A stretch of DNA of 64,000 nucleotides, taken from positions 210,490,001 to 210,554,000 of the forward strand of contig OX597814.1 in assembly GCA_951406725.2 (NCBI GenBank), written 5' to 3'. This document shows positions 2,346 to 61,110 of the stretch, one piece after another (position 1 is the stretch's first letter; each line of letters begins with the position of its first letter). This stretch comes from Octopus vulgaris (lineage: Eukaryota). The notes under the pieces were generated by a model. That model worked only from the letters and a program-made list of their open reading frames with translations, was not told the origin of the DNA and did no database searches. The position numbers and the translations under genes were made by a program.

Positions 2346-2556
2346 GAACTCGTCTGTACCACTAGCGATCGATTTTTTCCCCCTGTCTTCCCTTCTCGGG
2401 ATCTTTCCCTCTCCTATGTTTCCGACGAAGAGCTCCACTCGAAACGTCAAACCCTCCTTCTTCCCTTCTTTCCTGAGCGTCCAATAATACTTTATTTGTT
2501 CCACGTCCTTGCGTTGTTGTTTTTTTTGTTTTTGTTTTCTTGTTTGGATTAACTTT
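2346..2556 (+). mobile_element. PLE pLTR-like repeat with minimal hammerhead variant (2418-2452)
   Basis: gttt-CCGACGA-a-gag-ctcca-ctc-GAAA-CG-TC-aaac. Homologous copies at 21142-21345, 4183-4240 (minus), 49893-49975 and 52049-52132, all next to (TA)n. Confidence 0.65.
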
Positions 2557-3058
2557 ATATATATATATATAGAGAGAGAGAGAGAGAGAGAGAGAGGGGT
2601 AGAGATAGATAGATAGATAGATAGATAGATAGATAGATAGATAGATAGATAGATATATAGATAGAGATATGTATATATATATATATATATATATAGGTAG
2701 ATAGATAGATAGATAGATATAGATATGTATATATACGTATATTAAATACCTAAATATATATACGTATATATATATATATATATAATTAATTAATAAGGGT
2801 GAGAGAATTAGATACTAATTTAATAGTATATCTATTCAACACCAAGTGGCCTAGTGCTCCGAGAAACCTGGATTATTATAATATTTTATAATATATTATA
2901 ATATTTTTACAAAATAAATATAAGAGAGTGGTCACTATATGGCTCACTCTAGCACCAGTTAATCCAAAAGGTTTCAACCACAAAAATACATGTTTCCCAT
3001 GAAAGTCAGTACGATTGTTAGCTCACACGGACAGGGCAAATAAAAAATAACAAAAATA

Positions 3059-3154
3059 CAGATTATTTTGGGACAATTGTTTCGCTATTAATGAATTAAA
3101 TGTAATTTTACTTACAAAAAAATCCACTTGTAGCTCGTCAGCCAAAACTATCTG
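3059..3154 (-). ncRNA. Type I hammerhead ribozyme motif (inverted copy)
   Basis: Reverse complement of 3792-3887. Confidence 0.8.
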
Positions 3155-3791
3155 GATGAAATCCACTCAATCACACGCCAGATTTTACCATAACGATAAA
3201 TACGCGTGTGGTTCAATTGATTACATCCGACGTTATAATTCAAATTATAATTCAAATTATAATTATAATTACATCCGACGTTATAATTCAAATTTAATTC
3301 ATTTAATTCATTTAATTCATTAATAGCGAAACAATTGTCCCAAAATAATCTGTATTTTTGTTATTTTTTATTTGCCCTGTCCGTGTGAGCTAACAATCGT
3401 ACTGACTTTCATGGGAAACATGTATTTTTGTGGTTGAAACCTTTTGGATTAACTGGTGCTAGAGTGAGCCATATAGTGACCACTCTCTTATATTTATTTT
3501 GTAAAAATATTATAATATATTATAAAATAGTATAATAATCCAGGTTTCTCGGAGCACTAGGCCACTTGGTGTTGAATAGATATACTATTAAATTAGTATC
3601 TAATTCTCTCACCCTTATTAATTAATTATAATTATGCTGCATTTATTTCTAAATGCAGTATTTGTTTTCCGTGAGAGTTTGGCGCGCTGTTAGTTGGGGC
3701 ATTTGAATTATAACGTCGGATGTAATCAATTGAACCACACGCGTATTTATCGTTATGGTAAAATCTGGCGTGTGATTGAGTGGATTTCATC

Positions 3792-3887
3792 CAGATAGTT
3801 TTGGCTGACGAGCTACAAGTGGATTTTTTTGTAAGTAAAATTACATTTAATTCATTAATAGCGAAACAATTGTCCCAAAATAATCTG
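3792..3887 (+). ncRNA. Type I hammerhead ribozyme motif
   Basis: ttttgg-CTGACGA-gcta...tagc-GAAA-caattg-TC-ccaaaa: intact core, stems I and II pair, palindromic stem III, GUC cleavage triplet, distal cagat/atctg pairing. Confidence 0.85.
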
Positions 3888-4732
3888 TATTTTTGTTATT
3901 TTTTATTTGCCCTGTCCGTGTGAGCTAACAATCGTACTGACTTTCATGGGAAACATGTATTTTTGTGGTTGAAACCTTTTGGATTAACTGGTGCTAGAGT
4001 GAGCCATATAGTGACCACTCTCTTATATTTATTTTATATTATATATATATATATATATATATATATATATATATATATATATATATATATATATATATAA
4101 GCAGGAATCAGACCCGTATGCTTGCGGGTCGGCCCCGGCTGGATAGTCACGCTCTAGGTGACCGTCGCACCCCAAGGGGGTCAGAAACATAGGAGAAGAT
4201 GGAGGAAAAAATATCGCCAACGGTACACACACGGTCACATTTTGTAAGTATATATGTATGTATATATATATATATATATATATATATATATATATATATA
4301 TATATATATATATATATATATATATATATAATAGTCAATGTGACAATTATGTAAAAAAATTTTTTGAATTCATAATATTCTATGTTACTTTTGACAATCT
4401 TTTTCCAAAGAGTGAAACCGGTTAAGTAAATAAACATCTTTTAAATTGCATTTTCAAACCTTCTTTCGTATATAATTCCACTCGTGCGATACCCCACAAC
4501 TCAACTTTGTTATATATATATATATATATATATATATATATATATATATATATATATATATACAGATATAGATTTATAGATAGATAGAAATAGATATATA
4601 TGCTTGCATATATATATATATATATATATACAATATATAAATAAGTATTAAGGAATGGATATTTAACACTTCTGAGGTTCTGCTCATTATGAAACCGATG
4701 TAGTCCGGATCTCATATTCACCTTCCCTTAAC

Positions 4733-57611: not shown

Positions 57612-57986
57612 TATTATTATTATTACTATTATTATTATTATTATTATTATTATTATTATTATTATTATTATTATTATCATTATCATCATCATCATGATTA
57701 TGATTATTATTATTATTATTGTTATTGTTATTATTAATATCATTATCATCATCATCATGATTATCTTTGTGATTATGATTATGATTATTATTATTGTTAT
57801 TATTATTATTATTATTATTATTATTATTATTATTATTATTAATATCATTATCATTATCATCATGATTATGCTTATTATTATTATTATTGTTATTATTATT
57901 ATTAATATCATTATCATCATCATCATGATTATCTTTGTGATTATGATTATGATCATTATTATTATTATTATTATTATTATTATTAT
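57612..57986 (+). repeat. Compound (TTA)n/(TCA)n/(TGATTA)n repeat with higher-order blocks
   Basis: The block ttattaatatcattatcatcatcatcatgattatctttgtgattatgattatgat recurs. Confidence 0.9.
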
Positions 57987-60496
57987 TTGGCTGTATAACA
58001 AACCTAGAATATGTGTGTCGTTGAAAAGACAGAAACCTCTGCTTTCCGACTGGGAACATTCCCTTATGCTGTTATTTATACACCCATATATTTATACATA
58101 TTATATTTGTTAACTGTTCGTGCTTGCGCCTGTGTGTATGTGTGTGTGTTTGTGTGTGTATGTGCGTGTGTATGTGCGTGTGTATGTGTGTGTGTGTGTG
58201 TAGGTGTGCGTGTATGTGTATGTGTGTACATTTTCAAAATTTTCTTGATTAGAATTACTACAATTGATATAAAACTTATATTGTGATTTTTACCAGGACA
58301 TAGCAGACAAAATTCCGAATACGTGACTATTGTTAATGCTAATATTTTGCCTCAAAGAATGTAAAACTCTCAATATCCTGATTCTCTAATAAGAATTATT
58401 GTTAAAGACTATTTCAGTAACAAATGTGTTATCAAAAAAAAAAAGCGTATTCTAACATCTCACTCTCTTTAAAACATGACATGTGAGTCTTTAACATATG
58501 TGAACCTCGCCCCACAAAAATATAAAAAAAGAAAGAAGCAGAAAGCGGAGAGTTTAGAATCACATGTCAATATTAACACATGCCCTGACCTTGTCTTACA
58601 TAAATAATCCCTGCCTTTCTTCCTAAATGTGTATCTCAAACACCCAGCAGCCCAGAAAGCAATTGAATTTACTTTATTCAAATACGAGTAGGAAATAGCA
58701 TGCATTTCAATTCCGAGTAAAGAGTGGTTGCTCTTCATAATCAAATAAATTCAATTCAATAATGTATCAGCTGAAATTGAAAGGGCAACTTTAATGAACG
58801 GGATAGTGGGTGATGTATAATGTCTTACGCATAAATTGATAGCAATCGCTTCAGTAGGCAATCAAGTTTGCCAGTTTGCATCTCTGTGCAGGAGAACACA
58901 TTCATACGCATACCATACATACACAGACATGCGCACAAACACATATACACTATTCTATACGCACACATAGATATAAACACACACATACACTTGCGGGTGA
59001 TCTGACTTTATTTCGTTATTTCAGGGTTAACTAAACGCTTCCTCTCATCTAGAGGTGCGTGTCTGGATGGCTGCCATATCACTGAATCTTCACGAGTTTT
59101 GCAGAAATTTCCCAACATTACTATTTCCTATGTGTATAGATAAGGATTTTAATAGCAATATAAGTAAATACTGATGTATCAGTAGGCCAGCTTGTATGAC
59201 CAACATCATTAACATTGAAATGGTTAAGTAGATCAAAGCATAGATTAGTGTTAGACAGTAAGGAAGTTTATGACTACGTTTTATGAGCTTATTTTATTAA
59301 ATTATAGTATCGACACATGTGACGAATTTTTATCTAATCGTTTTATCGGAATAGTTATCAAACAGTTTTATCAGAATATTCATAAAACTATTTTAAATAA
59401 ATTACGCTCACATTTTCTTTAAATTATTCCAGCGAATATTACGACGTGGCATTAACAACCTAATTTATGAAATTAATTTAGACAATTAAATTAATTCTTT
59501 CATGAATGTTGATGATCAATCTCCCCAACACGGTAAAGCTGTCGAATTTTAGTGGGTGTCAGTTTTAAATAGGATACATCACTAAATCACCAAAGCTATA
59601 ACCACGCTCAGGAGAAGCGGTTAGCACCGTTTCTATGTAAGATCGAACTGGAGTCTCCGCTTATAATAACGTAAATATCTTTATAGAAATATCTTTAGGA
59701 AAAATTCATGTATTTCAGATTTATTAATACTCTGACTGTGAACTTGAAGCCGACACCTCTCATAATTAAATTTACGTTCACTCACTCACTAATCTTTAGA
59801 ATATTATAAACTTTACAGACCAAACAATATCATACAGAGATGCATGACCAGGGTGAAGAGTATGACCAGGGTGAGGAATGTACGATAGTGTATTAATTTC
59901 TCTATGTAAATGTACTAGTCAACCGTTAATTCCACGACGAGGTTTTGGAATTTCCCATCATATATTTCACATCATATAAAAAAGTAAGATAATTATATGT
60001 GTGACTACATGCATATATAAATCAGTCCATCCATCAATACATCCGTACACACACACACATGCACACACACACACACACACACACACACACACATTGACAC
60101 ACACCACACAAACACACACAGACAGACACACACTCACACATACACACATACATATGTATATACACCCACAACCACGCTAATAGGTTACAAGTGAAATTTA
60201 CTATTTCTTGGTTTTCTGTGAATCGATTTTGATAAAGCTTTTCCCATCTGGTTTTGCACACTATGTCAACACTATTGTTGTGTTTTCATTATTCTGTGTA
60301 ACGGCCTTTCTTTTCTATTTCAGATCCTTCAGGTTTAGGGTGAAACATGGTAATAGATTTTGAATGAAAATAGCCCATCTGGATAGTTTTTAATGACAAT
60401 AAATGGCAATGATACATATAAAGCATACTTTAAATATATATTTAACAGAAAACCATAATATGTATGTATGTATGCATATATATATATATATATGTG

Positions 60497-60762
60497 TGTC
60501 ATCTCTTGTGAAAGGTAGGAGAGTCCAGTTTGCTGGACATTGTTGTAGAGCTGAAAATGAAGTAATTTCTACTCTTCTCCTCTGGAAGCCATCTACTCGC
60601 AATGCCAGAGGGCGCACACTCTCCTACCCTGATGTAATCTCTAGGGATACATGCATCCAGCAACAGGACCTCCGTAATGCCATGATGGACCGTGAAGTCT
60701 GGCGTAGCATGGTAAATTCCATTGTCTCGTCCACGGTCGAATAATGATGATGATGATGATGA
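60497..60762 (+). mobile_element. RTE-clade LINE 3' end with (TGA)n tail
   Basis: Open frame RRVQFAGHCCRAENEVISTLLLWKP..GRTLSYPDVISRDT..LRNAMMDREVWRSMV..*, then (TGA)n. Confidence 0.85.
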
Positions 60763-61004
60763 TATATATATATATATATATATATATATATATATCGGAA
60801 GGTTTGGAGATGATGTACATGTATCATATATTAGAAAAAATGAGGTAATCAGATCAGATGGTTCATATTTGTAGATATTTATTTATATATTACATTTTTT
60901 ACATATACATCATATCATATCATTCGGATTAGCGCTTGCTCCCATTCTAGTGGGCTTTTCAAATCTCTCTATATATATATGTAACAGAGAAACAATATTT
61001 ATAT

Positions 61005-61110
61005 ATCATCTGAGGAAAGGCAAGCAGATCCTATAACGATGGGAAACGGTTACATAAATAAATACTTGCAAAACTGAAGAACTATGAGGCCTGGAAACAA
61101 TTGTAGTGAT
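61005..61110 (+). ncRNA. Type I hammerhead ribozyme motif
   Basis: atcat-CTGAGGA-a-aggc...gcct-g-GAAA-caattg-TA-gtgat. Intact core, GUA triplet, same caattg stem III as 3792-3887. Confidence 0.75.

Follow-up and report, generated by a model that had tools for sequence, protein, structure and literature searches.

Hammerhead motifs at (TA)n tracts of the Octopus vulgaris genome probably lie in the 3' ends of Penelope-like elements and in a young retrozyme

Hammerhead motifs and their families

We analysed a 64-kb stretch of the Octopus vulgaris genome (contig OX597814.1, positions 210,490,001 to 210,554,000 of the forward strand; hereafter the window), in which a sequence-only reading had listed 12 motifs shaped like type I hammerhead ribozymes (HHRs), most of them next to (TA)n tracts. 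Each of the 12 proved to be a type I hammerhead shape or a remnant of one, and a 13th, decayed motif that was absent from the list lies at 43395-43435 (+). Searches of the genome (2.8 Gb) assigned the 12 motifs to ten dispersed families (A, B, C, D, F, G, H, I, J and K), the relatives of which carry the hammerhead fold; the 13th belongs to family E. The motifs had been taken to represent mostly separate families, which holds except that 3059- and 3792+ are the two arms of one insertion and that 2418 and 21214 both belong to family B. First-look candidates numbered 28 to 3273 per motif family; the best 28-40 candidates were scored per search and 15-25 retrieved, and the samples lean towards close relatives. 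We regard it as very probable that the motifs are folds in the 3' ends of Penelope-like elements (PLEs) and, in family A, of a retrozyme, and that they stand at (TA)n likely because the Penelope GIY-YIG endonuclease (EN) cuts there and priming by its reverse transcriptase (RT) takes place at set positions of the RNA.

The only canonical and complete hammerheads in the window are those of the family A insertion. Its inverted arm (2781-3245, minus strand) carries one at 3059-3154, with a predicted cut after 3072, and ends in (TA)n at monomer position +291. The direct arm (3305-4035, plus strand) comprises 1.4 units of 535 bp, ends in (TA)n at monomer +161, and holds a 3' half-HHR (3324-3352) as well as a canonical HHR at 3792-3887, whose predicted cut follows position 3874. 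The sequence-only reading had also counted 17046- and 61005+ among the intact cores, which did not hold. The former, an old family H remnant (17046-17120, minus strand), retains its core letters with a broken stem I and a stem II partly deleted in comparison with relatives. The latter belongs to an old family with a long loop II (family G, 60985-61170, plus strand; HHR 61005-61108; relatives 71-80% identical), and its canonical core letters are accompanied by a degenerate stem II with A.G at the base.

Among the motifs that had been listed as variant or decayed, those at 20773, 25059, 34270 and 42791 are indeed damaged and form, together with 17046, the broken hammerheads of the window. Family K (20751-20811, plus strand) has relatives with a canonical HHR, and the window copy shows A15.1>C and a stem I that (TA)n truncates. 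In family F (24950-25262, plus strand; HHR 25059-25098), which represents the 3' untranslated region (UTR) of a putative Neptune-like PLE, the family core has a U3-A8 pair and the window copy has decayed by U3>G. The family I copy (34200-34450, minus strand; long-loop-II HHR 34271-34383) is mutated in stem I and in stem III, which reads CAGCUG in relatives, and family J (42745-42832, plus strand) retains the 5' part of its HHR, with a family E PLE fragment in place of the 3' part.

The motifs at 2418, 4385 and 44645 are undecayed and match the common state of their families. The first lies in a family B stub (2346-2553, plus strand; HHR 2418-2452) with the core C-C-G-A-C-G-A (U4C), a bulged A, a 3-bp stem II, the stem III CG and the site GUC. 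A second family B stub (21141-21345, plus strand; HHR 21214-21248) has the core U-C-G-A-C-G-A, which recurs in 5 of 22 readable copies. The motif at 4385 is part of the probable 3' end of a Neptune-like PLE of family D (4332-4510, plus strand; HHR 4385-4429), with a U3-A8 core, U.U at the base of stem II and the stem III CCGG, and its sequence is the same as in most relatives. The family C stub (44555-44760, minus strand; HHR 44646-44681) has the core C-U-G-U-C-G-A (A6U), a bulged A and the stem III CG.

The full type I layout (core C3UGANG8A9, GAAA, an NUH site and three stems) was found at 3059-/3792+ and in family K relatives, and in families D, E and F with paired 3-8 variants. An invariant U4 and A6 is not a feature of all families, the prevailing form of B having C4 and that of C having U6. 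The tiny or palindromic stem III described earlier was confirmed: it is palindromic or near-palindromic in the window (CAAUUG, CCGG, CG) and in relatives (CAGCUG, CUAUUAG, UCCGGGA).

Might such motifs arise by chance in AT-rich, repeat-rich DNA? An Rfam scan of the window gave no hammerhead at the gathering score, and of the 279 matches at E<=10 the 150 best included none. However, the strict descriptor CUGANGA..GAAA matched the window twice (cores 3141- and 3805+), compared with 0.05 times in 60 local dinucleotide shuffles, and a relaxed descriptor five times compared with 0.15, so that the excess over shuffled sequence, a check proposed with the original list, was upheld. A broader descriptor, which was composed after the variants were known, matched six times compared with 0.10 in 100 shuffles. 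These counts, the folds seen at family level, the location in PLE 3' ends and the covariation described below refute chance matching, to which we give practically no credence. The association with (TA)n was confirmed as well: the window contains 88 (TA)5+ tracts, and such a tract lies within 200 nt downstream of 8 of the 12 cleavage sites compared with 18% of random positions (p=3e-4, with motifs that are partly non-independent).

Linkage to Penelope-like elements

The window contains a piece of a broken, putatively Neptune-like PLE of family E (42825-43595, plus strand), in which a Zn linker and a GIY-YIG domain (42828-43215) precede the decayed HHR; for its EN fragment, 13,117 first-look candidates were obtained genome-wide. 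The open reading frame (ORF) of one relative (L096) scored 31.4 bits for RVT_1 and 27.6 bits for GIY-YIG, both over the Pfam cut-offs, with a linker of the Cx4Cx2C type, and the family E hammerhead sits in the 3' UTR of such PLE relatives. A Cx2-5CxxC linker between RT and EN, a trait of the Neptune clade shared with Nematis, is visible in the translations of L100, L101, L103-L105 and L320. The family E core AUGA(A/U)UA, with an A3-U8 pair, was present in 11 of 18 relatives with a script-located site; one relative (L085) has a G3-C8 pair, and stem III alternates among palindromes of unequal length (CCGG, CCGCGG and CCAUGG), so that its pairing is preserved through compensatory change.

A single ORF with RT and with GIY-YIG at its C terminus was found for families E, F and D, and an EN remnant only for family C. 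Of the other family F loci, 15 of 19 have a same-strand PLE ORF immediately upstream of the HHR. In family D such an ORF lies further upstream in three of four extended loci, with a 1.9-kb UTR in between, and in family C a GIY-YIG remnant lies 1.3 kb upstream in one of two extended loci (L063). These ORFs identify families D, E and F, and more weakly C, as 3' ends of Neptune-like Penelope elements, the attribution to Neptune being by the linker only. Families B, G, H, I, J and K are presumably stubs of further PLEs or of their non-autonomous derivatives. The pieces had been described as islands of 150-500 bp; they are short and TA-linked, but most are 5'-truncated ends of longer PLEs and not purpose-built small elements. 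The broader claim stands that retroelements with hammerheads, of the PLE and retrozyme kind and tied to (TA)n, form a large population made up of many families.

Hammerhead-less family B 3' stubs occur at 49893-49969 and 52048-52124, inside a block of ~2.2 kb that is tandemly duplicated in the window (~48700-50900 and 51000-52960).

Much of this has precedents. The parts of the literature compared here already describe minimal PLE-end hammerheads and their abundance, the bias towards TA, one-sided tails and retrozymes (PMC4209133, PMC8557442, PMC7229834, PMC11167929, 10.64898/2026.07.22.740005). The pseudo-LTR hammerheads of PLEs (PMC4209133) resemble ours in being of type I with a tiny palindromic stem III, in occurring as many families per genome, mostly as single motifs from truncated PLEs, and in having a bulged base between 9 and 10.1 (as B and C) or a U3-A8 core (as D and F); A3-U8, U4C and A6U as family-wide states do not appear in the main-text sections compared. 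Likewise, EN+ PLEs of the Neptune/Nematis type (PMC8557442) have RT followed by a Cx2-5CxxC linker and GIY-YIG, and share the partial tandems, the inverted 5'-truncated arm, the one-ended tail and the (TA)n bias; family A differs in its tail of 130 nt rather than 30-40 nt and in having no ORF, and the clade assignment here is by linker only. A literature search returned no paper on these families, their core variants or the strict two-end rule described below; it covered main texts, and motifs of this kind may be listed in the supplements to PMC8557442 and PMC4209133. The word 'ribozyme' is absent from the main text of PMC13282606.

Family A, a young retrozyme

The family A unit of 535 bp has neither an ORF nor PLE homology and forms tandem arrays of up to ~10 units with one HHR per unit. 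Its copies are ~99% identical to each other, and the core 24-mer has 211 exact matches in the genome. With fixed 3' ends and scattered 5' ends in addition to this identity, family A has the sequence signature of a young ORF-less tandem retrozyme that spread by retrotransposition. It resembles metazoan non-LTR retrozymes (PMC7229834, 10.64898/2026.07.22.740005) in its ORF-less tandem units with one type I HHR each, its low GC content, its 2-bp stem III with a tetraloop and its coexistence with PLEs. The unit is longer than the ~300 bp typical of those elements; a PLE-type two-arm footprint is quantified here for family A.

We compiled 70 loci, namely the C1-C7 sites among the first 100 listed matches plus the best matches of the genome search; one edge locus was kept outside the tallies. 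Of the other 69, 35 are simple head-to-head insertions of two arms, all of which pair an arm ending at ~+161 with one ending at ~+291. The outer ends of seven complex insertions and of L261/L301 conform to this pattern as well, which brings the tally to 43 of 43 insertions that have two arms and both ends intact. The remaining loci comprise five in which one arm is shortened at another point (three of these resemble duplicates of one event), 19 single arms and three others. Older ORF-less sister retrozyme families (L302-L313), 65-77% identical to A, have the same two end points and the two-arm layout.

The two arms of an insertion carry the same variants. Over ten polymorphic sites, arms within 44 two-arm insertions were discordant in 1 of 215 comparisons, compared with 2023 of 9534 (21%) between insertions, and none of 1000 permutations gave an equally low value. 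Array units also hold private variants in common: 19 variants were present in all copies of one insertion and in none of the other 67 loci. The spectrum of shared variants was distinct, with 10 A>G among 32 shared variants compared with 5 among 85 single-copy variants (Fisher p=8e-4). A test for editing showed no significant strand asymmetry between A>G and T>C (10/16, p=0.12).

The 5' ends of the arms are scattered. A pile-up at the cleavage site turned out to be an artefact of split alignments, the real ends nearby being scattered too, and classical L1 twin priming, in which the 5' end of one arm would lie at the start of the other, was rejected because it conflicts with this scatter. Most arms span the cleavage site and none begins exactly there, so that a cleaved linear monomer cannot have been the template. 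Folding of the monomer as a circle is predicted with z=-7.6, and comparison with the sister families revealed 13 double-change cells of compensatory changes in stem I, which none of 500 shuffles reproduced.

We lean towards a circular monomer, generated by self-cleavage and ligation, as the predicted template of family A, and cleavage is likely to matter for this family. Going further, we tentatively propose that family A RNA exists as a live circle, which a Penelope RT dimer would copy repeatedly from both nicked target strands. One subunit would invariably start at +161 and the other at +291 on one molecule, and changes of the RNA, possibly A-to-I edits, would be written into the genome. This reading is possible and falls short of being probable.

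Family A might instead have been mobilized from linear, uncleaved multimers transcribed from a few source arrays. Arrays would then grow through unequal crossover or jumps between templates, without the need for a circle and with the HHR as a passenger. Transcripts of one homogeneous source array would be compatible with the shared arm variants, and for PAc, the Poseidon element of Anolis, HHR mutants are reported to insert normally in vitro, with unprocessed RNA as the main substrate (PMC11167929). The longest array (L261, 1116-5393, ten units) has period-2 variants on one arm only, where alternate units carry the core changes C7A and G8A; a two-unit DNA duplication after insertion therefore also lengthens arrays. 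On the other hand, the 19 insertion-private shared variants and the distinct spectrum of shared variants fit changes that became fixed in a single monomer of template RNA, and stem I has been maintained by compensatory change across the sister families. We consider mobilization of linear multimers rather unlikely.

Of 24 listed rows of public sequencing runs, 20 contained the family A unit, in all cases as contigs, and the listing named no RNA run with it. In two of them (X9 and X12) one contig closes on itself at a period of 535 nt, which both a circle and a genomic tandem would yield. A comparison of contig depth between A and D in putative RNA runs was set aside, as contig depth is unsuited to ranking expression and the likeness thresholds were unequal (95 vs 90). 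The unit (window 3540-4025) occurred in runs under nine organism labels, and four runs under four labels differ by ~2 letters; this may reflect closely related species, a mixture of samples or horizontal spread.

Two end points, probable (TA)n targets and a proposed model of insertion

The rule of two ends extends to the ORF-linked PLE families. In two-arm loci of D and F, the second arm was shorter by 42-48 nt in 8 of 8 and 5 of 5 scorable loci, respectively (one F locus was unscorable), giving 13 of 13 combined. The same loci showed 5' truncation, an inverted arm and a one-ended tail, as did one E locus.

The 3' end adjoined TA in 22 of 24 loci of family B, 22 of 24 of C, 19 of 19 of D and 19 of 19 of F, compared with a background of 7%, and in family A at 107 of 112 fixed ends. 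Single-arm insertions of family A had TA at the 3' end in 19 of 19 cases and also at the truncated 5' end in 15 of 19; family B copies had TA on the 5' side in 19 of 24. The sequence-only reading had left it open whether the elements favour or generate (TA)n. If they made the tracts themselves as tails, by slippage or non-templated addition like some LINEs and SINEs, TA would be expected to follow almost every 3' end, as it does, and family A ends both its arms in AT-rich sequence. The tracts on the 5' side speak against tail-making, as does the (TA)n targeting reported in Zn-linker clades of PLEs, whose bias is tied to that linker (PMC8557442); tracts may have grown after insertion. We therefore take the tracts most simply as insertion targets and consider tail-making improbable; favouring (TA)n is the better supported half of the earlier claim. 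An AACUUU-like motif precedes the long 3' end in B, C, D and F, four families that cannot be aligned with each other, and may be an RT start signal.

A PLE-type mechanism likely unites these features. The endonuclease would nick both strands of a (TA)n tract, and the 3' end of each nicked strand would prime cDNA at its own fixed site of one RNA, the sites being 42 nt apart in D and F and 130 nt apart in A. The two 5'-truncated cDNAs would then be joined head to head, and single-arm products would give rise to the common stubs. Family A would likely borrow the PLE protein in trans. PAc (PMC11167929) offers a close parallel, with two RT start sites that define the tail, an AT-rich target, cutting and extension of both strands and a predicted dimer; the PAc sections compared do not describe paired arms of an insertion that invariably differ in start site or that derive from a shared template.

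Several observations weigh against this model or against parts of it. In the 1.5-kb flanks, no PLE ORF was linked to B, G, H, I, J or K, where Neptune-type queries alone were used and full-length copies were not reached. None was linked to A in 91 A loci, the one exception being L250, where an EN remnant lies past the TA tract, and a pattern search for a family A helper turned up only the ORF-less sister families. Both arms of one family B locus (L028) stop at the same point, and the 3' end of family E lies in TA in just 8 of 23 loci. For the circular template in particular, the absence of arm 5' ends exactly at the cleavage site and the one-sided duplication in L261 are unfavourable, and the stem I covariation amounts to about three independent lineages.

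Variant cores and the need for cleavage

The variant cores of B and C are not rare. An exact 30-mer of family B had 7,519 genome matches in its C4 form and 2,632 in its U4 form. CpG decay as the origin of the U4 copies was ruled out by a C7>T control with 232 matches, and the C4 and U4 forms are therefore both amplified subfamilies. In family C, the U6 form had 2,608 matches compared with 158 for CUGANGA. In vitro, U4C reduces hammerhead activity, which is still sufficient for a viroid, and A6C has low activity (PMC3088659), and the insertion of PAc in vitro is unimpaired by HHR mutations (PMC11167929). The amplification of U4C and A6U cores to thousands of copies suggests that cleavage is likely weak or dispensable for the spread of these subfamilies, and most stubs are likely to be passive.

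Could the scattered ribozymes cut host pre-mRNA and thereby shape gene expression? In favour are the 13 motifs of the 64-kb window and exact matches that number thousands per family, along with the complete folds of the 2,632 canonical-core B copies and of the D copies. However, most copies in the window are broken or single, and minimal PLE hammerheads are described as cutting poorly, without activity as monomers (PMC4209133). In Xenopus, eight of nine retrozyme dimers remained uncut, and retrozymes are depleted from introns (10.64898/2026.07.22.740005). Two-armed family A insertions are moreover predicted to fold back onto the ribozyme: in a read-through RNA, the canonical motif of the window would be locked in a long hairpin with the inverted arm. 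An effect on host transcripts seems very improbable.

Other features of the window

A full-length match to 5S rRNA (56102-56220, plus strand; 110 bits; one copy in the window) may be an orphan gene or a 5S-derived SINE, and is followed closely by a two-copy repeat of 185 bp (56272-56639). An (ATA)n array of 2 kb with 659 copies occupies 52982-54962. An open frame of 152 codons (5428-5883, plus strand) contains two weak C2H2 zinc fingers below the Pfam cut-offs and is presumably the terminal part of a LINE ORF.

Implications

The young families constitute a natural record of PLE insertion. The mechanism of PLE integration has been called an open task (PMC8557442), and the rule of a long and a short end, together with the variants shared between arms, gives predictions about it that can be tested. 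The insertion footprint of family A supports the mobilization of retrozymes by PLEs, a route proposed in PMC7229834, and the expansion of the U4C and A6U subfamilies to thousands of copies is relevant to the question of whether cutting by PLE hammerheads is needed at all. If family A is indeed a live circle copied from both nicked strands, this would provide a general mechanism of PLE integration that accounts for the one-sided tail, and the U4C, A6U and A3-U8 families would represent hammerhead cores of natural origin that work with protein assistance and have been multiplied thousands of times.

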